A DNA stretch of 64,000 nucleotides from an uncultured Clostridia bacterium. Lineage in GTDB: Bacteria; Bacillota; Clostridia; Christensenellales; Borkfalkiaceae. The notes beneath the pieces were generated by a model. That model did not search any database. It had not been told where the DNA came from and worked only from the letters and a program-made list of their open reading frames with translations. Of the stretch, positions 3,196-39,699 are shown piece by piece. How positions within the stretch are numbered: the first letter of the stretch is position 1; each line of letters begins with the position of its first letter. Location of the stretch: the NCBI GenBank assembly GCA_964513195.1, contig CAZELQ010000001.1, positions 1,990 through 65,989 of the forward strand, read 5' to 3'. Position numbers and translations under genes: made by a program.

Positions 3196-4373
3196 AAAGC
3201 CTATTCGCATACGCAATTATTCTCGTTTCGCTTTTCGCCGCGCCTTTGATAATAGGCGGATTTCCGAAGGCTTATGCCGACGAGGGTAAGGAGCTGAGCG
3301 ACAGTATTCAATCAATATTGGACAGCCTCGACCTGAGCGAGATACAGGCCTATCTGGACAAGTACGGCAACGACTTTCTTTTCTCTTTCGGAGATACGGC
3401 CAAAGACATTGCCGAGTATTTATTGCGAGGCAATCTGTCGCTGGACTATCAAAGCTACATTTCCGAACTCCTTTCGGTGCTTTTTAAGGGCGTAATTTCG
3501 CTGCTTCCGGCATTTGCGCAGATTGTTGCAGTCTCTATAATCTGCTCGGTAGCGGCCGGAGCGGAGGGAAGTATACTGAGCAAGACCACCGCAAAGGTCG
3601 TGCGGCTTGCCTGTATGTCGCTCATCATGCTTATTCTTTCCTCCATGTTGGCGGGTATAGTTTCCGAATCGGTGGCGTGTATTACCAATATAAGAAAACA
3701 GGTGGAAATTATAACGCCGCTTTTAGTTACCCTGACCGTTTTGACGGGCGGCGCCGACGCGGGAGCTATATACAGACCGTCCGTTCTGTTTTTGAGCGGC
3801 GGGGCGATAGAAATGGTGAGCTCGTTCATTTTTCCCGCGACAATCACAGTAATTATACTCAATTTTATGTCTAAATTAAATCCCGATATCAGCTTTACGG
3901 GAGTTGCATCTCTCTTAAAGTCGGTTATGAAATGGGTTATAGGCATAACTGTGACCGTATTCGGACTATACATAACGGTGCAGAGTACGTCGTCGTCGCT
4001 TTTCAACGGCATATTCTTTAAGGTCACCAAATACCTTGTGGGAAACTCGGTGCCAATCGTAGGCAACTTTCTTTCCGCCGGCGTCGATATGGTTGTTATG
4101 TCGGGCACGATTGTAAAAAGCTCGCTGGGCATGATGGGCATAATAATGCTGCTGGGAGAAATAATACAGCCTGTTTCGGTGCTGGCTTCTTTTTCCCTTA
4201 TGCTTAAAATAACGGGCGCGATAGCCCAGCCATTGGGCGAGAAAAATTTATATCTTATGTTCAACGACCTGTCGCGCGACGTCGAGTACCTGATTGCGGG
4301 CATACTTATGGTTTCGTTTATGTATTTCCTCGTCGTTATGCTCGTAATAAATTCGGGGTATGCGTTTATATGA
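3108..4373 (+). CDS. spoIIIAE: Stage III sporulation protein AE (start uncertain)
   Basis: Large polytopic membrane protein with a signal-like N-terminus (...FAAPLIIGGFPKAYADEG), fifth in the operon. ATG 3108 overlaps spoIIIAD by 88 nt and lacks an SD. There is no in-frame ATG, GTG or TTG closer to 3195. Confidence 0.75.
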   Translation: MRKNYNFHYVGAHTAIAVRRNRKAYTAFLKSLFAYAIILVSLFAAPLIIGGFPKAYADEGKELSDSIQSILDSLDLSEIQAYLDKYGNDFLFSFGDTAKDIAEYLLRGNLSLDYQSYISELLSVLFKGVISLLPAFAQIVAVSIICSVAAGAEGSILSKTTAKVVRLACMSLIMLILSSMLAGIVSESVACITNIRKQVEIITPLLVTLTVLTGGADAGAIYRPSVLFLSGGAIEMVSSFIFPATITVIILNFMSKLNPDISFTGVASLLKSVMKWVIGITVTVFGLYITVQSTSSSLFNGIFFKVTKYLVGNSVPIVGNFLSAGVDMVVMSGTIVKSSLGMMGIIMLLGEIIQPVSVLASFSLMLKITGAIAQPLGEKNLYLMFNDLSRDVEYLIAGILMVSFMYFLVVMLVINSGYAFI

Positions 4374-6077: not shown

Positions 6078-6114
6078 ATTCCCTTAATGCACGGATTAAG
6101 GGAATATTTTATTT
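6078..6114 (+). terminator. Rho-independent terminator after the asp23-family gene
   Basis: Stem ATTCCCTTAAT, loop GCACGG, stem ATTAAGGGAAT, then ATTTTATTT. Confidence 0.75.
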
Positions 6115-6124
6115 GGGTTAAATT

Positions 6125-6526
6125 ATGAGAACGGTTGCAAGAGAAACACTTTTTAAAATCGTATATTCTTCCCAATTCGTCGATATCTTCGACGAACAGC
6201 TTAAAAAATCTCTCTATAAGTCCGCCGAACTTGACGAGAACGACAAGGCTTATTGCGAAAAGCTTTTAAACTTAATTTCAGAGCGCCGCGAAGAGCTTGC
6301 AAAGATTATCGACTCGCACTCTGTCGCATTTCCCGAAAAGCGCATCTTCCCTGCGGACAGGAGCATACTTTTAATCGCCCTTTCCGAAATTTTATACTGC
6401 GACGATATACCCGATAAGGTTTCGTTAAACGAGGCCGCGAATATCGCCTCCAAATATTCGTCGGAGAAGAGCGCAAATTACGTGACGGGAATACTGTCGG
6501 CGGTTGTCGGAGGGAAAAATGGTTAA
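6125..6526 (+). CDS. nusB: Transcription antitermination factor NusB
   Basis: 133 aa. RETLFKIVY...ADRSILLIALSEILY...VSLNEAANIASKYS is typical of NusB. Confidence 0.9.
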   Translation: MRTVARETLFKIVYSSQFVDIFDEQLKKSLYKSAELDENDKAYCEKLLNLISERREELAKIIDSHSVAFPEKRIFPADRSILLIALSEILYCDDIPDKVSLNEAANIASKYSSEKSANYVTGILSAVVGGKNG

Positions 6527-17291: not shown

Positions 17292-17996
17292 ATGGATTAT
17301 GTAATTGAAATAATTGCCAGACTGATTGCCGTTGTCTGCGTCTTTGCGCCACATGAATTCGCGCATGCCTACGTCGCATATAAAAACGGCGACCCGACGG
17401 CAAAAATTAACGGCAGAATGACGCTGAACCCGTTGAAGCACATTGATCCGACGGGATTTATTCTGTGCGCGCTGGTCGGCTTCGGTTGGGCAAAACCCGT
17501 ACCCATTGACCCTTACAACTTCAGAAAGTACAAAAAAGGCATGTTTACTACTGCCGTCGCGGGCGTTATAGTAAACTACATTATTGCCTTTATCGCATAT
17601 TTATTGCTGATGTTGGTCGGCAGATTTCTGTTCGCATTCTCATTGCAGAGTACGGTTACCGGCTACATCGTATATTTTCTGGAGACAACATTTTATCTCG
17701 TTTTTGCGTACAGTCTCTATTCTTTCGTGTTCAACCTCTTGCCTCTTAATCCTTTGGACGGATTCAGGGTGGTACAGGCCTTGACGAGAGAGGTAAACCC
17801 CGTACACAAATTTTTGAAAGAATACGGCCAGATGATTCTGATTATTCTTATTGCAGAAAGTTTCATCTGCAATATTGCCTCCGCATACTTGCCTATATTC
17901 GATTACTTCAATATTCTCGGCTACGTCGGCTGGTTTGCGCAAAATATTATCGGGTACCCCATTAAAGCTGCTTGGGGCTGGATTTTAACGGTATGA
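17292..17996 (+). CDS. Site-2 protease family (M50) membrane metalloprotease
   Basis: HEFAHAY (HExxH) in the first TM region and NLLPLNPLDG downstream; multi-TM. Confidence 0.8.
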   Translation: MDYVIEIIARLIAVVCVFAPHEFAHAYVAYKNGDPTAKINGRMTLNPLKHIDPTGFILCALVGFGWAKPVPIDPYNFRKYKKGMFTTAVAGVIVNYIIAFIAYLLLMLVGRFLFAFSLQSTVTGYIVYFLETTFYLVFAYSLYSFVFNLLPLNPLDGFRVVQALTREVNPVHKFLKEYGQMILIILIAESFICNIASAYLPIFDYFNILGYVGWFAQNIIGYPIKAAWGWILTV

Positions 17997-18811
17997 TTGA
18001 CGAAGAAAAATACGGAAAATTCGAATCTGAAGTTGATTACGATACGGTCTTGGACGATTTCGAGGGGCCGCTCGATCTTCTTTTGCACCTGATAAATATC
18101 AACAAGATAAACATAGAGGACATCTTTGTTTCACAGGTTACCGAACAGTTTTTAAACTATATCGAATATATGAAAACCCAGCCGTCGCGCGACGTCGATA
18201 AAGAGAGCGACTACCTTGCCATGGCGGCGCAGATAATCTATATAAAATCCAAATCGTTGGTCCCCGTCGTGGAAATCGACGGAGAGGAAATAGGCGGTGC
18301 GGACGAAGAACAGCAGGCGCTTATCGAACAGCTTAAGCAGCGTGAATTCGAGCTTATCAAGGAGCAGACGCCCAAGCTTAAAGACCTCGAAACTATCGGC
18401 TATTATTACAAAGAACCCGACAAAGAAATAAGTAAAGTAAAAGTCGTTTATAAAGACTTTAACGTGGACGCTCTTTTGCAGGCTTTTGCAAACCTGCTCT
18501 TAAGAAACGAGAGCCTTCAACGCGAAAAGGAAAACGTAAAGGAAATTCCCAAGGACGAATATACCGTTCACGACAAGGTTACTTATATTCGCGACAAGCT
18601 GTGCGAACGGGAAGAACTCGACTTCGAAGAACTGTTTACTACATATTCGAAGAGCGAAGTGATAACAACCTTTCAGGCTCTGTTGGAGATGCTCAAATTT
18701 CAATTTCTCCTAATCGAACAGGCCGAAACGTTCGGAAATATAAAAATAAAGCGCAATCCCGAAACAGACTTAAAGGATGTACATAATGAACAATTTGACG
18801 AATATAATTGA
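17993..18811 (+). CDS. scpA: Segregation and condensation protein A
   Basis: ATGA overlap with the upstream stop. FEGPLDLLLHLI is the hallmark ScpA N-terminus. Confidence 0.88.
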   Translation: MIDEEKYGKFESEVDYDTVLDDFEGPLDLLLHLININKINIEDIFVSQVTEQFLNYIEYMKTQPSRDVDKESDYLAMAAQIIYIKSKSLVPVVEIDGEEIGGADEEQQALIEQLKQREFELIKEQTPKLKDLETIGYYYKEPDKEISKVKVVYKDFNVDALLQAFANLLLRNESLQREKENVKEIPKDEYTVHDKVTYIRDKLCEREELDFEELFTTYSKSEVITTFQALLEMLKFQFLLIEQAETFGNIKIKRNPETDLKDVHNEQFDEYN

Positions 18812-19496
18812 GGGCATCGTATTTGCTTCCGGCGAGGCAGTGCCCGTAAAATACATAATAGAAAAATTCGGCTGTACGCTGAAAGAAGTAAACGCTTGCA
18901 TAGACCAACTGAAAAAGAAGTTCGGCGCCGAGAGCGGTATACATCTTCTGACGTTCAACGGAAAATTGCAGTTCGCCACCAACCCCGACTACCGGCAACA
19001 AATTTCCGACGTGCTTACGCCGATAAAAGAAAAAGAATTTACAAAGACGATATTGGAGTGCGCCGCACTTGTCGCATACAAACAACCCGTAACAAAGGGC
19101 GACCTCGAAGAGATAAGACAGGTTAACTGCGATTACGCCATACATACTCTTTTGGAAATAGGTATGATAGAGCCCTGCGGCAGAAAGGACGCAGTAGGTA
19201 AACCCATTTTATACGCAACGACGGACAACTTCCTCAAGAGATTCAAATTGAACTCTATCGACGATTTGCCGGATTACGACCAACTTATGGCGCAGATTGC
19301 CGAACTCAACGATACGATTCTGCGCGAGGAAGAGGGCGGAAATTATCTATATAAAAAGGACGAATATAACGCCGAAGAGGACGCGCCGCAGAATAAGGAA
19401 CAACCCAAAGAAGAGGTTAAACCCGTTTCTACAGAAGACGGTTACGAGCTGCCCGACTTTTTGAGCGGCGAGGAAAACGTAATTAAAATTAAGTAA
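18786..19496 (+). CDS. scpB: Segregation and condensation protein B
   Basis: AAAGGA SD 8 nt upstream of ATG 18786. IIEGIVFASGEAV and ECAALVAYKQPVTKGDLEEIR are typical; the tail is acidic. Confidence 0.9.
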   Translation: MNNLTNIIEGIVFASGEAVPVKYIIEKFGCTLKEVNACIDQLKKKFGAESGIHLLTFNGKLQFATNPDYRQQISDVLTPIKEKEFTKTILECAALVAYKQPVTKGDLEEIRQVNCDYAIHTLLEIGMIEPCGRKDAVGKPILYATTDNFLKRFKLNSIDDLPDYDQLMAQIAELNDTILREEEGGNYLYKKDEYNAEEDAPQNKEQPKEEVKPVSTEDGYELPDFLSGEENVIKIK

Positions 19497-19517
19497 ATTA
19501 ACCTTATAAATACAGTT

Positions 19518-19547
19518 CCGCACGTAAAAGCGTGCGGGCTTTTTTAT
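19518..19547 (+). terminator. Rho-independent terminator after scpB
   Basis: Stem CCGCACG, loop TAAAAG, stem CGTGCGG, then GCTTTTTTATT. Confidence 0.8.
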
Positions 19548-19585
19548 TACCGAATAATTATCCGGTTTTTACAGATAATAATCTT

Positions 19586-20113
19586 GTGAACGCACTCGTC
19601 TATGTTTCGGCAATAATTTTTGCCTTATCGATATTTCCCGTTCACCTGACAAATTACGTCTATCTTTCAACGACGGAAAACTACGCGAGCGTAAACGTAA
19701 CCCTTTACAGATACATCAGGATTTACAATGCGAATTCAAGCAGAAAGAAGATTGGGGACGATAAAGCGGGCGACGGACAGAAAAGCATAAACGTTTCCGA
19801 CTATACCGGTATCGATTTTCTTGCTATATACAATAAACTTTGTATTACGAAAATCGTCCAGCTCGGCGATTACGGGCTTATGAAAAACGCAAACGTTTAT
19901 GCGGCGCTTACCCAAAACGCGCTTACGCAGGCGTTATACGCGTTTGTCAGAATCAACGGCGGGAGAACAAAGCTGCGAAACTACTCTATACTGAACTACG
20001 AGCACGGAGATATAAACTACTACTTAAAACTGACGGGCGTTATTAACGCTATGTCGTTTTTAAAAATATTTTTAATTTATTTAATGGGGAAAAGAAATGA
20101 GCGTAAAACTTAA
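19586..20113 (+). CDS. YtfI-like sporulation-associated protein (DUF2953-like); start uncertain
   Basis: It lies directly upstream of, and overlaps, a YtfJ/GerW-like gene, as in the Bacillus ytfI-ytfJ pair. The N-terminal TM helix was judged by pattern only. The track start (19532) sits inside the scpB terminator, so GTG 19586 was chosen. Confidence 0.45.
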   Translation: MNALVYVSAIIFALSIFPVHLTNYVYLSTTENYASVNVTLYRYIRIYNANSSRKKIGDDKAGDGQKSINVSDYTGIDFLAIYNKLCITKIVQLGDYGLMKNANVYAALTQNALTQALYAFVRINGGRTKLRNYSILNYEHGDINYYLKLTGVINAMSFLKIFLIYLMGKRNERKT

Positions 20114-20477
20114 AAAAACACAGAAAGACACATCGAATTTTGAAAAACCTGCATTTTCTATCGATAAACTTGCCGACGCCAACACCGTAATAGGCGAATC
20201 GATAGTTACAGTGAGCGGCTCGCAGGTAATTCCGCTTTCTACGGTTACCGTTGTTAATTTAGGCGGCGGCGGAGAATACGGCGACGTAAAGACGTTCAGA
20301 GAGGCGGACGGCTTTAAACTCGCAGGCGGCAACGGCACGGTCGTCACGGTAAAGCCCAAGGGATTTCTGGTCGACGACGGCAAGGAATGCAAGCTTCTCA
20401 AAATGGAAGAGGGCGCGATAGATACGCTTATAGAAAAGACAGGGGAGTTAGTTCACAAAATTTCCGACAATGTTTAA
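20097..20477 (+). CDS. ytfJ: Sporulation protein YtfJ (GerW family)
   Basis: GESIVTVSGSQVIPLSTVTVVNLGGGGEYG...GNGTVVTVKPKGFLV is the GerW/YtfJ signature pattern. Confidence 0.8.
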   Translation: MSVKLKKTQKDTSNFEKPAFSIDKLADANTVIGESIVTVSGSQVIPLSTVTVVNLGGGGEYGDVKTFREADGFKLAGGNGTVVTVKPKGFLVDDGKECKLLKMEEGAIDTLIEKTGELVHKISDNV

Positions 20478-21480
20478 ACGATTAAGCGTTATAATTACTT
20501 TGTCGCTGTTTGCGTGCGCAATGATAATTTTGCCCGTTTTGCCGATAAAATCGTACGCAAACGCCGACGGTAAGGCAGAAATTGCAATGGAGCTGAACAG
20601 CGGTACGGTCTTTTACGAAAAGAATGCCGACCAAAAGCTACCCATGGCCAGCACTACGAAAATTATGACGGCGCTCATTATCGCCGAAGAGTGCGAACTT
20701 GACCAAACGATAACGGTACCCGACGAAGCGGTCGGCATAGAGGGCTCCAGCATATATTTAAAACACGGCGAACAGATTTCCGTAAAGGATTTGCTGTACG
20801 GCCTCATGCTGCGTTCGGGAAACGACGCGGCGTGCGCGCTTGCCATTCATTGCAGCGGCAGTATAGACGGTTTCGTCGAAAAGATGAACAAGAGAGCCGA
20901 AGAGCTCGGCGCAAACGACACACATTTCGTCAATCCGAACGGCCTGCCTGCCGAGGGGCACTATACGACGGCAAGAGATTTATGCAATATAGCGCGCTAC
21001 GCCATGCAAAACCAAACCTTCCGCACGGTTGTTTCCACTAAAAATTATAGCGGCGAATATAAAAATTTCACCAATAAGAATAAGCTTTTGAATACTCTCG
21101 ACGGCGCGAACGGCGTTAAGACGGGCTATACCGAAAAAGCCGGAAGATGCCTCGTTTCTTCGGCCGGAAGAGATAACATGGACGTCGTATGCGTCGTTTT
21201 GAATTGCTATGATATGTGGGAAAGAAGCGCTGCGATTATAGACGACTGCTTTAATAAATTCTCGGTCGAGGCTATAGAAAAAGACAGGGTATTCGAATAT
21301 AACGGAAAGAGCCTGACTCTCGGGGAAAATTGCTTCGTAACCGCCGAAAAAGACAAAGAGCTCGAATATAGAATAACGTCGGTCGGACGTCAAAGCGACG
21401 GCGCGGAGGCCGAACTTAAAATATTTTGCGAAAATAACTTGATTTTCAGTCATAATTTGTATACTATTTTAGATAGATAA
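20470..21480 (+). CDS. D-alanyl-D-alanine carboxypeptidase (S11, DacB/DacF-like)
   Basis: Signal peptide, MASTTKIMT (SxxK), RSGNDAA (SxN) and KTGYT (KTG). Confidence 0.88.
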   Translation: MFKRLSVIITLSLFACAMIILPVLPIKSYANADGKAEIAMELNSGTVFYEKNADQKLPMASTTKIMTALIIAEECELDQTITVPDEAVGIEGSSIYLKHGEQISVKDLLYGLMLRSGNDAACALAIHCSGSIDGFVEKMNKRAEELGANDTHFVNPNGLPAEGHYTTARDLCNIARYAMQNQTFRTVVSTKNYSGEYKNFTNKNKLLNTLDGANGVKTGYTEKAGRCLVSSAGRDNMDVVCVVLNCYDMWERSAAIIDDCFNKFSVEAIEKDRVFEYNGKSLTLGENCFVTAEKDKELEYRITSVGRQSDGAEAELKIFCENNLIFSHNLYTILDR

Positions 21481-21502
21481 TATTTAAAAGCAGAATACGG
21501 AA

Positions 21503-22201
21503 ATGAGAATTAACAGATACCTTGCCGCGTGCGGGGTGGCCTCGCGCAGGGAGTGCGACAAACTTATAGAAAACGGTGCCGTTACGGTAAACGGCAAGCT
21601 CGCGCAGTTGGGCGCCGACGTGGAAGAGGGAGATACCGTCTGCGTGAACGGCAAAACGGTTTCGGTTAAAAAGAACGATTATTATATTCTTAATAAACCC
21701 AAAGGGTATTTATGTACTGTGAAGGACGATAAGGGGCGCAAGACCGTTATGGACTTAATGCCCGAAAACGTCGGAAGAATTTACCCCGTCGGCAGGCTCG
21801 ACTACGACAGCGAGGGGCTTTTGATTCTGACTACCGACGGAAATTTAGCCCAACACTTGACCCACCCGTCCAATCAGGTACCCAAGACCTATCTGGTTAA
21901 AGTCGAGGGAACGCTGACCGAAACGGCGTTAAACCCCATAAGAAGCGGTATCGATATCGGCGGTTACGTCACTAAAAAATGTAAGGCGCACATCGTCGAA
22001 ACGAACAAGGCCTACACAAAGGTGCACGTGACTATTACCGAGGGCAAGAACAGGGAAGTAAGAAAGATGTTCGAGGCAATCGGAAAAGAGGTAACGTTGT
22101 TGAAGCGCATAAAGGTGGGCGACCTTACGCTTAAGGGGCTTGACCGCGGTGCATACCGAAAATTGACGGCGGAAGAGGTAGCGTACTTATTTTCGATATA
22201 A
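21503..22201 (+). CDS. rluB: rRNA pseudouridine synthase (RsuA/RluB family)
   Basis: N-terminal S4 domain (RINRYLAACGVASRRECDKLI) and the catalytic GRLDYDSEGLL motif. Confidence 0.88.
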   Translation: MRINRYLAACGVASRRECDKLIENGAVTVNGKLAQLGADVEEGDTVCVNGKTVSVKKNDYYILNKPKGYLCTVKDDKGRKTVMDLMPENVGRIYPVGRLDYDSEGLLILTTDGNLAQHLTHPSNQVPKTYLVKVEGTLTETALNPIRSGIDIGGYVTKKCKAHIVETNKAYTKVHVTITEGKNREVRKMFEAIGKEVTLLKRIKVGDLTLKGLDRGAYRKLTAEEVAYLFSI

Positions 22202-22240
22202 AAAAGAATCGGCAGGTTTTTAACTGCCGATTCTTTTTAT
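22201..22240. terminator. Bidirectional terminator at the convergence of the + and - gene blocks
   Basis: Stem AAGAATCGGCAG, 8-nt loop, stem CTGCCGATTCTT, flanked by an A-run on the left and a T-run on the right. It lies between rluB (+) and lexA (-). Confidence 0.85.
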
Positions 22241-22244
22241 TTAG

Positions 22245-22838
22245 TTACATACTTCTTATCAGTCCTACGACCTTGCCCAATATTGTAATATCGTCGAACA
22301 CAAAGTCTTCCATATCGTCGTTTTCGGGGTGAAGAATAAATTTGCCGTCCCGCTTATAATAGCGCTTCACCGTAGCGCTGTCGCCGACCAACGCGACGAC
22401 GATTTCGCCGTTTTCCGCAGTTTCCTGTTTTTTGACTACTATTTTATCGCCGTTGAACATACCGATTTTAATCATACTGTCGCCCTGAACGTTCAGCATA
22501 AACAAATCGTCGCTGCCGAAAAGGTTTGTAGGCACGGAGAAAAAATCCTCGTAATTTTCCTGTGCGAAAATGGGCTCGCCCGCGGCAACCGTACCAATGA
22601 GCGGAATTTTAACCGCCCTTTGGTTTATTGAACAGGTGCGCCGCTTGTTGGACCCGACTTTGGATTTAGTTATATAGCCCTTGTCGGCAAGCTCGTTCAT
22701 AATGGCGAAGCACGAGGCGGTAGAGGGAATATCGCAGCCGGCGCAGATTTCCCTGACTGAGGGGGAATAACCGTTTTCGGTCATATACTTTTCGATAAAG
22801 GCAAGAACCTGTGCCTCACGCATTTCGTTTTTCTTCAT
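22245..22838 (-). CDS. lexA: SOS repressor LexA
   Basis: Start at MKKNEM with a GGTGAG SD. It has a winged HTH, the VAAG cleavage site, GDSM (Ser) and KR (Lys) of the S24 peptidase. Confidence 0.93.
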   Translation of the reverse strand: MKKNEMREAQVLAFIEKYMTENGYSPSVREICAGCDIPSTASCFAIMNELADKGYITKSKVGSNKRRTCSINQRAVKIPLIGTVAAGEPIFAQENYEDFFSVPTNLFGSDDLFMLNVQGDSMIKIGMFNGDKIVVKKQETAENGEIVVALVGDSATVKRYYKRDGKFILHPENDDMEDFVFDDITILGKVVGLIRSM

Positions 22839-22891
22839 TTTACACACTCACCGAGTTTTCTTTCAGTATAACATATAAAAAAATAAAAATC

Positions 22892-22903
22892 AAACTTTTG
22901 TTT
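22892..22903. promoter_or_regulatory. Degenerate SOS-box-like palindrome overlapping the lexA -35
   Basis: AAACTTTTGTTT matches 6 of 8 positions of GAAC-N4-GTTC. On the minus strand it overlaps TTGATT, which with a 17-nt spacer and TATACT forms the lexA promoter. Confidence 0.35.
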
Positions 22904-22915
22904 AATAAATTTCTG

Positions 22916-22944
22916 TTGAAATTATATTTGTTTTCAATTATAAT
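22916..22944 (+). promoter_or_regulatory. SigA-type promoter of the Cys-rich ORF, divergent from lexA
   Basis: TTGAAA (22916-22921), 17 nt, TATAAT (22939-22944), followed by an AGGAGA SD 7 nt before the ATG. Confidence 0.6.
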
Positions 22945-22964
22945 AATCTGCAGGAGATAAAACT

Positions 22965-23150
22965 ATGAATTTAGGCGGCGAATGTATATTGGACGACGGC
23001 AAAATCTGCGACGGGTGCGGAGAGTGCGAGGTCTGCGACCTTGACAGAAACAAGAAGTGCGACAACTGCGGAAAATGCCTCGATATACGCGACGACGCAG
23101 TAATAAAAATCGATAAAATCATATTAGATAACGACGGCAATGTTGAATAG
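22965..23150 (+). CDS. Small cysteine-rich protein (61 aa, 8 Cys), function unknown
   Basis: It has a strong promoter and SD. The motif is C-x7-CxxCxxCxxC-x7-CxxCxxC. There is no TM segment and the C-terminus is acidic. Confidence 0.6.
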   Translation: MNLGGECILDDGKICDGCGECEVCDLDRNKKCDNCGKCLDIRDDAVIKIDKIILDNDGNVE

Positions 23151-23159
23151 CGTAGGCAC

Positions 23160-24218
23160 TTAATCGTCGTCGCGCTTCAGCTTAACCTTGCCGACTACGG
23201 AACGGCGCGTGTCTTCGCTTATCGCCGCGTAGTGTTTTCTTGTAGTATTCACGTCCTTGTGCCCCAAAACGTCGGCCACGATATAAATATCGCCCGTCGC
23301 CTTGTAAAGCTGCGTACCGTAGGTAGAACGCAGTTTGTGCGGCGAAATCTTTTTTAAGGGAGATACGATTTTCGCGTACTTTTCAACGAGGTTTTCAACC
23401 GCTCTGACGGTAATTCTGCGCTTTTGCGAGGAGAGGAAGAGCGCCCCGCCGTCGCAACCTGTCAAATCGGTTTCCTCTTTGTAGTCGAGGTAGCGTTGCA
23501 GCGCGGCCGCGACGTCGTCGTCGAAAAAGAGTATCGATTTACTGCCGCCCTTACGCGTTACTACAAAGGAATTATCTTTGAAATTTATATCGCCGTCGTT
23601 AAGGCCGACAAGCTCGCTTATACGAATACCCGTGCCGAGAAATAAGGTAATTATCGCGGTGTCGCGCACTTTGGCTTTTTCATGGTAGGCGCGTTGGCGG
23701 GGTGTAAGCCCGTTGCCGCTCTCGGCGGTATCTATAATATTGAAAACCTCGTTGCCGTCCAGCCTGATTATAGGCTTTTCGTGCAGCTTGGGAGTGGCAA
23801 CCTTGGCGGAATTGTCCACCGAAATTTTGCCCTTGTTGAAGAAGTATTTAAACATTGCGCGGATTGAGGAAAGCTTCCGTGCCTTAGCGCGTTCGTTGCA
23901 GGTATGCGATACCCCGCCGAATTCATAGTGTGAGAGGTATACCAAAAAATATTCGATATCGTTGTTGGAAACGCTTTCCAAGTCTTCGAGCGTAAGTTCT
24001 TTTACCGTTTTCTTTCCGTTAAAACGCTTTTCGCACAGGAAATTGAAAAAAATCTTTAAATCGTGCGCGTAATTAAGTCTTGTAAGGGTGGAGGTAAGGC
24101 TGTCAATCGCCAGAAAATAATCGAGGCAGAAGGCAGGCAAATCCTCTTCCAAAAGTCGGCTGATTGTTTCTATATTCTTATTGTTTCTTTGAGTGTAGTA
24201 GTCGGCATTTGTTTTCAT
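23160..24218 (-). CDS. Tyrosine site-specific recombinase (Xer-like, 352 aa)
   Basis: GTGIRISELVGL (Arg I), VTRKGGS (Lys), SPHKLRST (HxxR), LGHKD (His) and RKHYA (Tyr). It has a long N-terminal core-binding domain. Confidence 0.9.
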   Translation of the reverse strand: MKTNADYYTQRNNKNIETISRLLEEDLPAFCLDYFLAIDSLTSTLTRLNYAHDLKIFFNFLCEKRFNGKKTVKELTLEDLESVSNNDIEYFLVYLSHYEFGGVSHTCNERAKARKLSSIRAMFKYFFNKGKISVDNSAKVATPKLHEKPIIRLDGNEVFNIIDTAESGNGLTPRQRAYHEKAKVRDTAIITLFLGTGIRISELVGLNDGDINFKDNSFVVTRKGGSKSILFFDDDVAAALQRYLDYKEETDLTGCDGGALFLSSQKRRITVRAVENLVEKYAKIVSPLKKISPHKLRSTYGTQLYKATGDIYIVADVLGHKDVNTTRKHYAAISEDTRRSVVGKVKLKRDDD

Positions 24219-24259
24219 AATTAAATTTTACACCTATAGCATACAAAAAGTCAATCGCA

Positions 24260-24272
24260 TTTTACGAATAAT
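24260..24272 (+). repeat. Direct copy of the right arm of the 24413-24440 palindrome
   Basis: TTTTACGAATAAT is identical to 24430-24442. Confidence 0.8.
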
Positions 24273-24412
24273 TATAACGTTTAAAAACGTTTATTTATTA
24301 TAACGTAACCGATAACTTCAATAGCGGCGGCAGTGGTGTGAACGAAGTAAATAAATCGATTGTAAACGTGTATGGTAGCGGGTATAGTGGCGGGGTTAAA
24401 AGTATATTTAAC

Positions 24413-24440
24413 TATTCGTAAAACACAGCTTTTACGAATA
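24413..24440. other. Candidate dif-like / recombinase core site (perfect 11-6-11 inverted repeat)
   Basis: TATTCGTAAAA, CACAGC, TTTTACGAATA. The arms are exact reverse complements. The site lies 194 bp upstream of the recombinase gene in a 418-bp non-coding gap. Confidence 0.45.
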
Positions 24441-24574
24441 ATAAGGCTAAAAAACGAGTTTATAATAGGGAATTGCTCGGCTGATTATCGGATTTTTCTA
24501 TAATACGGCGAAAAATTACTTAAATTTAAGTATTTTACGTAAATTTCAATCTTAATTTCCGTTTTAAAATTTAA

Positions 24575-24600
24575 AGGCGTTTGCCATTGTACAAACGCCT
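24575..24600 (-). terminator. Terminator hairpin downstream of hisIE
   Basis: Stem AGGCGTTTG, 8-nt loop, stem CAAACGCCT, 37 nt past the hisIE stop. The flanks are T/A-rich on both sides. Confidence 0.65.
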
Positions 24601-24636
24601 GTTTTACGGTATTATGTCTGACATAATATCTCCGGA

Positions 24637-25284
24637 TCAGACCATTTTCTGTTGTTTTACCTTATGGTCGATAATGTGCCTTTTGGCAAGCTCGCTTTTA
24701 ATCTCCTGCGGCGTTATATTCATTTCGGCCATTAAAACCATAACGTGATACGCAAGGTCGGCAATCTCGTAAACCGTTTCGGCCTTGTCGCCGCCCTTGC
24801 CGGCAACGATAACCTCGGTGCTTTCTTCCCCGACCTTTTTTAAAATTTTGTCTATTCCGTTCTGAAAAAGATAGCTTGTGTAAGAGCCCTCGGGTAATTC
24901 GCTTTTTCTCTGCATAAGCAAGTCGTACAAGCCCTGGAAGGAAAAACTTCGATATTCGTCGTTTGCGTAAAGTTCATTGGTAAAACAGCTGTCCGTTCCG
25001 AGATGACATGCAGGACCGTCTTTGATAACGTTTACGGTCAACGCGTCAAAATCGCAGTCGGCGGTTATCGAAACAATGTGCTGAAAGTTCCCGCTGGTTT
25101 CGCCCTTGCGCCAAAGCTTCTGTCTGCTGCGCGAAAAGAAACACGTCTTTCCCTCGTTAAGGCTGATTTCCAGACTTTCGCGGTTCATATAGGCGAGCGT
25201 CAATACGCGGCCTGAATAAAAGTCGGTCACAACCGCGGGAATCAACCCATTTTCGTCAAACTTGAGCTTATTTATATCAATCAT
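24637..25284 (-). CDS. hisIE: Bifunctional phosphoribosyl-AMP cyclohydrolase / phosphoribosyl-ATP pyrophosphatase
   Basis: The HisI region (GLIPAVVTD, FFSRSRQKLWRKGETSG) is fused to the HisE region (EESTEV...EIADLAYHVMVLM). Confidence 0.92.
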   Translation of the reverse strand: MIDINKLKFDENGLIPAVVTDFYSGRVLTLAYMNRESLEISLNEGKTCFFSRSRQKLWRKGETSGNFQHIVSITADCDFDALTVNVIKDGPACHLGTDSCFTNELYANDEYRSFSFQGLYDLLMQRKSELPEGSYTSYLFQNGIDKILKKVGEESTEVIVAGKGGDKAETVYEIADLAYHVMVLMAEMNITPQEIKSELAKRHIIDHKVKQQKMV

Positions 25285-38343: not shown

Positions 38344-39699
38344 TTAATTCTTATTTGAATGAATGGGTGCGGGTATAAGTCCGCCCCTTAAAATAAATCT
38401 TTCGGAAGATTTGGAGTGCACCGGCATAATCGGCGCTCGGCCGAGCAGCCCGCCGAAATTTACCTCTTCCCCAACTCCTTTTCCGGGCACAGGAATAACC
38501 CTGACGGCAGTCGTTTTGTTATTTATCATGCCGATAGCCGCCTCGTCCGCGATTATCGCGCTTATCGTCGTCGCGGAAGTATCGCCCGGAATAGCTATCA
38601 TATCGAGGCCGACAGAACAAACTGCCGTCATGGCCTCCAACTTGTCAAGATTTATGTCGCCGCGCTCAGCCGCCTCTATCATTCCGATATCTTCGGACAC
38701 CGGAATAAACGCGCCCGAAAGTCCTCCAACGCGCGAGCTTGCCATAACGCCGCCCTTTTTCACCGCGTCGTTTAGCATTGCAAGACAGGCGGTCGTGCCG
38801 TGCGTACCGACGCTCTCGAGCCCCATGGCCTCGAGTATCTGCGCTACGGAATCGCCTCTGGCAGGCGTGGGCGCGAGCGATAAGTCGACTATACCGAAGC
38901 GCGCGTTTAGTCGCTTTGCCGCCTCGTTGGCGATGAGCTGGCCTGCCCGCGTGATTTTGAAAGCCGTACGCTTGATTGTCTCGGCAAGCCGGGCAAGGTC
39001 TGCGTCCGGCACCGCCTCTATCGCGTGCTGTACGACGCCCGGTCCCGAAACGCCCACGTTTATGACGGTGTCGCTTTCGCCTACACCGTGAAAGGCGCCC
39101 GCCATGAAAGGGTTGTCCTCCACGGCGTTACAAAATACTACGAGCTTGGCGCAACCGAAGCCGTCCTTGTCCTTCGTAGCCACGGCTGTTTCCTTTACAA
39201 CCTCGCCCATAAGCTTGACGGCGTCCATATTTATACCCGACTTCGAGGAACCGACGTTCACCGAAGAACAGAGCATATCGGTCGTTGACAGAGCTTCGGG
39301 AATGGTCCGTAAAAATACTTTTTCGTAATCTGCCGTTCCCTTGTGGACAAGCGCAGAATAGCCGCCCAAAAAGTCAATATTCAGCTGTTTAGCCGCCCTG
39401 TCGAGAGCCTTGGCAATCAACGGAGCCTTTTCGGGGAAGGCCGCACAAAGAATACTTACCGGCGTTACCGAAACGCGTTTATTTACGATAGGTATTCCGT
39501 ATTCTCTGAACAGATCGTCGGCCACGCCGACGACGTTTGCGGCCTTTTTACATACCAAATCGTAGACGGCGTTTGCGGTCTCTTCCCCCGTCGCCCTTAT
39601 ACAGGGCAAAAGGGAAATTCCCATAGTCACCGTTCTGATATCGAGGTGTTCCCTCTCGACCATATCTATTGTTTCGAGTACGTCTTTATAGTTGAACAT
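38344..39699 (-). CDS. UPF0210 (DUF711) family protein
   Basis: About 450 aa. The [12 protein letters not shown] start pattern is typical of UPF0210, and it pairs with the upstream ACT protein. Confidence 0.8.

Follow-up and report, generated by a model that had tools for sequence, protein, structure and literature searches.

A dif-like palindrome and an XerS-like recombinase gene at the GC-skew switch of an uncultured clostridial chromosome

The palindrome and the adjacent recombinase gene

The DNA analysed here is a 64,000-nucleotide stretch of the genome of an uncultured Clostridia bacterium of the Borkfalkiaceae (GenBank assembly GCA_964513195.1, contig CAZELQ010000001.1; hereafter the window). 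In this window, a gap of 418 bp separates hisIE (24637-25284, minus strand), the last gene of the his operon, from the start of a gene for a tyrosine recombinase of 352 amino acids, which we designate xer. The gap carries a palindrome with the appearance of a dif site, at which Xer recombinases resolve chromosome dimers. An earlier note on this DNA had drawn attention to the palindrome and had proposed that it forms, together with the neighbouring gene, a self-contained module for chromosome dimer resolution or another kind of site-specific recombination.

Direct reading of positions 23000-25000 located one arm, TATTCGTAAAA, at 24413-24423, the central CACAGC at 24424-24429 and the second arm, TTTTACGAATA, at 24430-24440. 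The arms are exact reverse complements and thus form a perfect 11-6-11 inverted repeat of 28 bp, so that the coordinates, geometry and arm complementarity claimed in the earlier note were all confirmed. The 13-mer TTTTACGAATAAT, described there as a direct copy at 24260-24272, is indeed found at this position as well as at 24430-24442. Three exact copies of the 11-mer arm occur in the window, the third of them at 24260-24270, and all three lie within the 418-bp gap; the full 28-bp site is present once. Allowing one mismatch, the arm matches the window 10 times, compared to 3.94 +/- 2.04 times in shuffled sequences, none of which reached 10. The coordinates of these and further features are summarised in Table 1.

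Table 1. Features of the recombination module in the window and of corresponding sites and inserts in related loci (prefix L)
Feature	Position	Strand	Sequence or evidence
xer, gene for a 352-aa XerS-like tyrosine recombinase	23160-24218	-	Hidden Markov models (HMMs), catalytic residues
Putative sigma-A-type promoter of xer	24225-24254	-	-35 TTGACT (24254-24249), 18-nt spacer, -10 TAAAAT (24230-24225); 10/12 consensus
Lone half-site, core TTCGTAAAA at 24262-24270, left-arm orientation on the gene-sense strand	24260-24272	-	Exact third arm copy
dif-like site, perfect inverted repeat	24413-24440	.	Arm TATTCGTAAAA + 6-bp centre + arm TTTTACGAATA; direct reading
Asymmetric central region, gene-sense GCTGTG	24424-24429	-	GCTGTG in 47/74 sites, GCTGCA in 9/74
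Intrinsic terminator of the his operon, bounding the site on the far side	24575-24600	-	10-bp stem with 5 G-C pairs, then TTAAATTTTA
Insert	L036:2289-9914		
Insert	L069:3678-9898		
Insert	L058:3385-9377		
Insert	L054:4794-9930		
Insert	L021:689-4608		
Site in L126			TATTCGTAAAA GCTGTG TTTTGCGAATA
Site in L127			TATTCGAAAAA CCTGCG TTTCCCGAATA
Sites in L163, L164 and L165			TTCGCAAAA-N6-TTTT(G/A)CGAA

Footprinting of the gap against the three closest relatives sharing the his flank revealed only two conserved islands, namely the palindrome and the lone half-site together with the promoter. The zero-spacer palindrome TTTACGTAAA, which the earlier note had listed as a related element, is present at 24534-24543 but is irrelevant to the system: it is not conserved even in these three relatives and is best treated as a chance occurrence in AT-rich DNA. 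A further palindrome with 7-2-7 geometry, AACGTTTAAAAACGTT (24277-24292), lies between the half-site and the main palindrome and is not conserved in loci L001-L003. As lexA is located two genes away, the palindrome was also considered as a LexA operator; this idea was rejected, because the site is unlike GAAC-N4-GTTC and the only such box of the window is found at 39248. The best match in the window to the dif sites of B. subtilis or E. coli has 9 mismatches in 28 positions. Likewise, the conserved XerD arm TTATGT(T/A)AA(A/C)T does not occur in the window, and the arms of the site bear no resemblance to it.

The protein encoded by xer contains a Pfam Phage_integrase domain (2.8e-29) and a SAM-like N-terminal domain. 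The R/K/HxxR/H/Y set of a tyrosine recombinase, reported as intact in the earlier note, is invariant in 16 orthologs (R199, K223, H294, R297, H320 and Y330). Among the NCBIfam models, XerS (NF003462) ranked first with 193.1 bits (E 6e-57), followed by XerA (154 bits), XerC (152.8 bits) and XerD (139.9 bits). The scores for XerA, XerC and XerD all fall below the curated cut-offs, the equivalog thresholds of XerC and XerD being 335 and 330 bits, respectively. The closest relatives of solved structure by sequence are XerD, XerA and, weakly, XerH (PDB 5jjv, 31 bits). An AlphaFold model of moderate quality (predicted local distance difference test score 73), in which the catalytic C-terminus was poorly modelled, was compared with known structures by Foldseek, and XerA, XerD and XerH appeared ahead of Tn1549 Int, lambda Int and Cre (E about 1e-4 for Cre). 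The structure comparison only confirmed an Xer, integrase or Cre fold and left the subfamily unseparated. A search of 1.8 billion cluster representatives gave 717 matches to the protein at E<=1e-30, the nearest of them being 345-360 aa long and 35-53% identical. The XerS model was matched at E<=1e-45 by 114 of the 116 nearest 50%-cluster representatives, the XerC, XerA and XerD models by 66, 58 and 26, respectively.

The neighbours of xer in the window are housekeeping genes, with scpA, ytfJ, a D-Ala-D-Ala carboxypeptidase gene (dac), rluB and lexA on one side and hisIE, hisF and hisA on the other. In agreement with the earlier note, phage or transposon genes were not found around the module in the window, nor were conjugation genes, and the 64 kb contain no second tyrosine recombinase. 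The phage database returned two matches of 47-49% identity, both on unverified faecal scaffolds which carry the same site, while the others among the matches listed did not exceed 31%. The faecal scaffolds L126 (MT835478.1) and L127 (MT835555.1), deposited in GenBank as 'UNVERIFIED: Bacteriophage sp.', encode xer and lexA in addition to a dif-like site and probably hold bacterial terminus DNA rather than purely phage genomes.

The lone half-site is situated 7 nt upstream of the -35 element of xer. As the -10 element ends 6 nt before the ATG at 24218 and leaves no room for a Shine-Dalgarno sequence, the xer mRNA is probably leaderless. The arrangement of TTCGTAAAA, 0-8 nt, TTGAC(A/T) and a TATAAT element 6-9 nt before the ATG recurs in relatives irrespective of the distance of the palindrome, and 60 of 75 loci have an arm sequence within 130 nt of the start codon, in 30 of them as a lone half-site and in 30 as part of the full palindrome. 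Hence, the exact arm copy which the earlier note had counted as part of the module is real and conserved, but as a promoter-proximal element outside the recombination core. Its position makes it a candidate operator and suggests negative autoregulation by a monomer of the recombinase.

Conservation of the site and its position at the skew switch

A genome scan with one genome per species provided 80 related loci comprising 1.3 Mb in all. The closest 120 homologs are 76-88% identical and all originate from metagenome-assembled genomes (MAGs) labelled Clostridia bacterium or Candidatus Coproplasma; further MAGs from the genome scan bear the labels Christensenella sp., Candidatus Borkfalkiaceae and Christensenellaceae. 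Orthologs, with 65-88% identity, occur once per locus in conserved chromosomal synteny. The strict core NN-TTCGTAAAA-N6-TTTT(A/G)CGAA-NN was found exactly once, and upstream of xer, in 73 of the 80 loci; three of the remaining seven are on contigs which end without upstream sequence, and four carry a recognisable variant upstream. The distance between site and gene is mostly 50-900 bp, as in the window, where 194 bp lie between the end of the site and the ATG of xer. The pairing of gene and upstream palindrome pointed out in the earlier note for the window thus extends to most orthologs and in addition to five homologs of 47-53% identity (L126, L127, L163, L164 and L165).

The 9+9 core is invariant across the sites of the relatives. 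The two outer positions of each arm vary (TA/TA, AC/GT, TC/GA, GC/GC and TG/CA), with complementarity kept in 54-64 of 74 sites, and the palindromy often reaches 14-6-14. Identical arms in which changes are mostly complementary are expected if a single protein reads both of them and would not be imposed by an XerC/XerD heterodimer. The asymmetric central region is the sole source of polarity of the site and presumably the zone of strand exchange.

An exact scan of metagenomes for the 24-bp core with the GCTGTG spacer retrieved 32 contigs with one match each. The xer gene is present on 24 of these contigs, in all but L150 on the expected side and in L129 at a distance of 6 kb across an insert; at least two of the eight contigs on which xer was not seen, L130 and L149, have too little sequence on that side. 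As each contig has a single match, the site is not dispersed in the manner of repetitive extragenic palindromic (REP) elements. Such a dispersal had been taken into account in the earlier note, and neither the 73 loci with one full site each nor the 32 contigs showed it.

On the gene side, the order xer, orf61, lexA, rluB, dac, ytfJ, orf193, scpB, scpA is widely conserved, with lexA present in 71 and orf61 in 67 of the 80 loci. The his operon adjoins the other side in only 3 of the 80 loci, which rules out a his-related regulatory role of the site. The break of synteny at the site fits the junction of two replichores. A tblastn search for a second Xer-like gene was negative in each of the 80 loci, which together represent 1.3 Mb from around the terminus.

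GC skew is positive over positions 1-24000 of the window and negative over most of 24001-64000, the sign changing between 24000 and 24999 at a resolution of 1 kb. The maximum of the cumulative GC skew of the whole window is located at 24491, just 51 bp from the palindrome. Genes to the left of the site are mostly on the plus strand and those to the right mostly on the minus strand. As transcription and the G-rich strands converge at the site, it marks a terminus and not an origin of replication. The genes xer and lexA are encoded on the minus strand yet share the positive skew of the left replichore; the switch therefore tracks the palindrome and does not merely reflect gene orientation. Nearly all related loci likewise have positive skew to the left and negative skew to the right of the site. 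Among 53 long loci, 21 have their local maximum of cumulative skew no farther than 500 bp from the site, compared with about 2.5 expected under a uniform distribution (binomial P 1e-14).

Five loci in which the site is 4.7-7.7 kb away from the gene (L036, L054, L058, L069 and L021) separate the two candidates for the position of the switch. The intervening DNA has right-hand skew in all five, and in the four loci long enough for a cumulative analysis the skew maximum is found 48-741 bp from the site. Where site and gene lie apart, the skew switch goes with the former.

Several purine-rich 7- and 8-mers are strongly polarised toward the site in the window and in L001-L080, namely AGTGGAC (104:2), GAAGTGGA (59:1) and AGGGGAG (94:4). 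They are candidates for motifs that orient FtsK, similar to FtsK-orienting polar sequences (KOPS) or architecture-imparting sequences (AIMS), a signal confounded by the coding-strand bias. KOPS-like polarity was not used as evidence for the terminus because of this confounding by co-oriented genes.

The conserved order scpA, scpB, orf193, ytfJ, dac, rluB, lexA, orf61, xer covers positions 17972-24218 of the window. In many Bacilli, xerD is found near scpA and scpB (PMC8136486), and the XerS-like gene may occupy the ancestral position of xerD. The small ORF between xer and lexA (22965-23150, plus strand), which is divergent from lexA and kept in 67 of 80 loci, encodes a Cys-rich protein of 61 aa with repeated CxxC motifs. 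The location of this ORF is reminiscent of small SOS-induced genes such as yneA; a Cheo box was not detected in the spacer between lexA and orf61.

DNA elements inserted at the site

In the five loci with a distant site, the DNA between site and gene is an insert of 4-7.6 kb (Table 1). The inserts of L036 and L069, which were scanned with Pfam, both encode a rolling-circle Rep of the Rep_OBD family (PF01719), that of L036 additionally a CI/LexA-like repressor; neither contains a Pfam recombinase domain, and their other ORFs are without family match. The inserts of L058 and L069 share 91% identity despite their origin from different MAGs, and that of L036 is related to them but diverged. Proteins of this element family also occur in the metagenome contigs L129 and L145, the latter holding only part of such an element.

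The junctions of these inserts fall within the site. At the distal junction of L036 a perfect site, ACTTCGTAAAA GCTGTG TTTTACGAAGT, is present. The gene-proximal junction reads ATCTATAAT-GCTGTG-TTTTACGAAGT followed by GTTTGATATGCT, which is the flank of the uninterrupted locus L010. By its sequence, the proximal junction combines the right arm of the chromosome with a degenerate left arm, the two meeting at the central region, and the junctions of L054 are analogous. The proximal palindrome of L058, L069 and L021 instead has a spacer of 9 bp (e.g. GTTTCTGTG). The junctions look like the attL and attR of integrative mobile elements exploiting Xer recombination (IMEX) and suggest that recombination takes place naturally at the site. 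Searches of IMG/VR with insert proteins of 501 aa and 449 aa gave no free (episomal) forms, and the inserted elements have neither relatives in IMG/VR nor PHROG matches apart from the CI-like repressor.

Palindromes with the same arms and a 9-bp spacer, GT(T/C)NNTGTG, were found beside xer in several loci (L008 ~700-730, L046 ~6100-6135, L021:4608, L058:9377 and L069:3845 and 9898), sometimes with an imperfect site of 6-bp spacer 60-200 bp farther upstream. In L164, a locus of the clade with about 50% identity, an inovirus-like region (L164:1-4280) which encodes a Rep of the REP_ORF2-G2P type and eight small ORFs abuts the site at 4250, where the sequence is TATTCGCAAAA GACAGG TTTTGCGAATA. A ygjP-padR-RNaseH segment of L164 appears inverted relative to L165, and genes for FtsK (including its gamma domain), RecA and LexA lie close to the module of L164. 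A scan of IMG/VR for TTCGTAAAA-N6-TTTTACGAA returned 45 contigs (L081-L125) with other spacers and no proteins in common with the inserts. In several small contigs among them (6-9 kb) the site adjoins a recombinase only 27-29% identical to that of the window, and a recurrent site, AAAGTTCGTAAAATTGTAGTTTTACGAACC, is found in many contigs of 44-60 kb from a single sample.

Interpretation and relation to known Xer systems

Taken together, these data make it highly probable that the palindrome is the dimer-resolution site, with a cognate XerS-like recombinase, at the replication terminus of an uncultured clostridial chromosome. The proposal of the earlier note is therefore supported by the skew, the conservation, the synteny break, the inserts and the affinity of the protein to XerS. 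That the system operates strictly with a single recombinase, as the symmetry of the arms would imply, is reasonably likely. According to the proposed mechanism, the identical arms would be bound by the adjacent 352-aa recombinase, most likely as a homodimer, and two sites of a chromosome dimer would be brought together in a tetrameric synapse. Strand exchange at the edges of the 6-bp GCTGTG would then convert the dimer into monomers, presumably under the control of FtsK. With symmetric arms, polarity would come from the central region alone, as in the loxP spacer. By binding the lone arm beside the -35 element of its own, probably leaderless, promoter, the recombinase might repress its own synthesis. 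In related genomes, small Rep-encoding elements without a tyrosine recombinase would use the site in the way IMEX use dif.

Several observations weigh against this interpretation. The score of 193.1 bits lies below the curated XerS cut-off of 267 bits (NF003462), and this cut-off is reached by none of the 116 nearest representatives, the best of which attains about 4e-69. As XerS is the best model but its cut-off is missed by the protein and its relatives alike, the recombinase is a member of a broad clade which resembles XerS but lies outside XerS proper. Linkage to a dif site is not universal in this wider clade: the homolog of Clostridium sp. Marseille-P299, a Lachnospiraceae-like isolate, belongs to a tier of about 40% identity and is accompanied by neither a palindrome nor a skew switch. 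In 32 of the 53 loci the skew maximum is more than 500 bp away from the site, which we attribute to gene-level noise in stretches of 21 kb. Furthermore, the arms of difSL and difH are imperfect, and the perfectly symmetric site of the window departs from them (PMC2965235). Finally, the sequence covered amounts to 64 kb of the genome itself and about 21 kb per relative, and the related sequences are all MAG or metagenome contigs.

Upstream of the Marseille-P299 homolog (L160-L162, 9560-10000), two perfect LexA boxes, GAACATATGTTC, were found. Some members of the XerS-like clade may be under SOS control without being linked to a dif site.

The site might be processed by the window protein together with a second Xer recombinase encoded elsewhere, as in the case of XerC and XerD. 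Both of these occur in most Firmicutes, xerD is usually located near scpA and scpB (PMC8136486), where the xer gene of the window lies, and the sequence covered is part of the genome. We nevertheless regard such a pair as improbable, because the arms are exact inverted repeats in which the outer changes among relatives are mostly complementary, they do not resemble the XerD arm, no second tyrosine recombinase was found in the 1.3 Mb from 80 relatives, and linkage of gene and site is a stated hallmark of single-recombinase systems (PMC5357621). A canonical dif at another skew switch, which the earlier note had envisaged, is contradicted by the switch at the site itself and by the window, which contains neither a canonical dif nor an XerD arm. 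It is very unlikely, too, that the module represents the integrase and att site of a mobile element, resident or decayed. An integrase gene beside its site is usual in phages, integrons and integrative and conjugative elements (ICEs), as was noted also for xerS (PMC1914069), and homologs of 47-49% identity are found on scaffolds deposited as 'Bacteriophage sp.'; these scaffolds, however, are unverified and unannotated and carry the same site and lexA. Moreover, mobility genes are missing around the module in the window, the synteny with scpA, scpB, dac, rluB and lexA is maintained across dozens of MAGs, the orthologs (65-88% identical) occur once per locus, and the site is at the terminus. Neither does the protein group with phage or ICE integrases, an outcome foreseen as possible in the earlier note, as its top models are XerS, XerA, XerC and XerD and its synteny is conserved.

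If palindrome and half-site served only as transcriptional operators for the control of xer or his, without any recombination, their frequent location within 130 nt of the start codon (60 of 75 loci) and the lone half-site abutting the -35 element would be readily understood. The conservation of the palindrome even at 4.7-7.7 kb from the gene, where it coincides with the skew switch, makes a purely regulatory function highly improbable, as do the crossovers within the site seen in the hybrid junctions of the inserts, its location downstream of the his terminator with a his flank in only 3 of 80 loci, and its dissimilarity to the LexA (Cheo) box. A structural element, such as a terminator or REP-like hairpin which lies near the recombinase gene by coincidence, would agree with the stability of the palindrome folded as RNA (-12 kcal/mol, z = -3.0). 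Such a terminator or RNA element was rejected, and we consider a structural role extremely improbable: no T-tract follows the hairpin and a promoter and terminator scan called no terminator there, the site is located downstream of the real his terminator, and an Rfam search of the gap matched no family. In addition, the site is single-copy in the sequence covered, and across the 65-88% identical relatives the stem sequence itself, not just its pairing, is invariant.

The difH site of XerH has the geometry AAAA-N6-TTTT. The single-recombinase Xer systems named in reviews and more recent research papers are XerS/difSL of the Streptococcaceae, XerH/difH of epsilonproteobacteria, XerL of the Legionellales and XerA of archaea (PMC5357621, PMC9765430, PMC1914069, PMC3025954). 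A literature search for such a system in Clostridia found nothing, and the combination of XerS with clostridial family names returned only noise. The module therefore appears to be a variant of a known system which is apparently undescribed in this lineage, and the corresponding statement of the earlier note agrees with the literature searched.

The system most similar to that of the window is XerS/difSL (Le Bourgeois 2007, PMC1914069; Nolivos 2010, PMC2965235). XerS has 356 aa and the window protein 352, the R-K-H-R-H-Y set is shared and the XerS HMM is the best match. In both cases the site is found upstream of the gene, in one module with it and at the GC-skew switch, and the left arm of difSL, TTTCCGAAAA (PMC5357621), resembles TTCGTAAAA in the window and TATTCGAAAAA in L127. 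Apart from the score of 193 versus the 267-bit equivalog cut-off, the differences concern the clostridial host (Christensenellales-like MAGs), the extra half-site at the promoter and the site itself: difSL comprises 31 bp, its arms are imperfect and differ in length, and its central region is long (PMC5357621), whereas the site described here is a perfect 11-6-11 and up to 14-6-14 in relatives. The asymmetry of the difSL arms is held to order strand exchange (PMC2965235).

The canonical dif of XerC/XerD is also 28 bp long but has two different arms in place of identical inverted ones. XerH/difH of Helicobacter and Campylobacter shares a single recombinase of about 355 aa with a site near the gene, and differs by very weak sequence similarity (PDB 5jjv, 31 bits), imperfect difH arms and another phylum. 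The single-recombinase XerL system of Legionellales (PMC9765430), which was recognised via a mobile element at a conserved terminus-proximal site, likewise has long uninterrupted inverted-repeat arms and variable flanking genes. In Legionella, however, xerL is more than 400 kb away from dif, while here gene and site are adjacent, and XerL orthologs are undetectable by homology to XerC, XerD, XerS or XerH, whereas the window protein is clearly XerS-like. By analogy, Cre/loxP of phage P1 would offer a model with perfect inverted arms, one recombinase, polarity from an asymmetric spacer and a gene beside the site; loxP, however, has a 13-8-13 geometry and is found in a phage or plasmid, and Cre is only distantly related (Foldseek E about 1e-4). 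The inserts of L036, L069, L058, L054, L021 and L129 resemble the IMEX at XerCD dif sites (CTXphi, VGJphi, TLCphi and the gonococcal island) in that they lack a tyrosine recombinase, carry a rolling-circle Rep and sit exactly at the site, with one perfect site regenerated and one degenerate hybrid. They differ in their Clostridia hosts and in the recombinase exploited, which would be XerS-like.

One can speculate that all these elements belong to a single picture, which we put forward tentatively and rate at slightly less than an even chance. In it, a large clade of uncultured, Christensenellales-like gut Clostridia, among them Borkfalkia and Coproplasma, would possess a further single-recombinase Xer system of its own, with a loxP-like symmetric dif and a leaderless gene autorepressed via the half-site. 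Rep elements and the inovirus-like element of L164 would hijack the site, and the XerS of Streptococcaceae may descend from this clade.

The module extends the short list of single-recombinase systems for dimer resolution, where XerS, XerH, XerL and XerA are its nearest relatives that have been solved or studied, to a major clostridial lineage associated with the gut. For MAGs of this clade, the site provides a precise marker of the terminus, useful for assembly checks, the definition of replichores and estimates of growth rate. The symmetric site also bears on a question of mechanism: asymmetric arms are held to bias the first exchange of strands and to make recombination FtsK-dependent, and if the symmetric site works, this role must fall to its 6-bp centre or its flanks. 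Both the order in which strands are exchanged and any control by FtsK would then have to arise from features other than unequal arms. The inserts suggest an undescribed family of Xer-exploiting elements in Clostridia which, if confirmed as such, would be the first IMEXs described there. Finally, the XerS-like clade with its 717 cluster representatives (E<=1e-30) is a candidate origin of the streptococcal XerS module.

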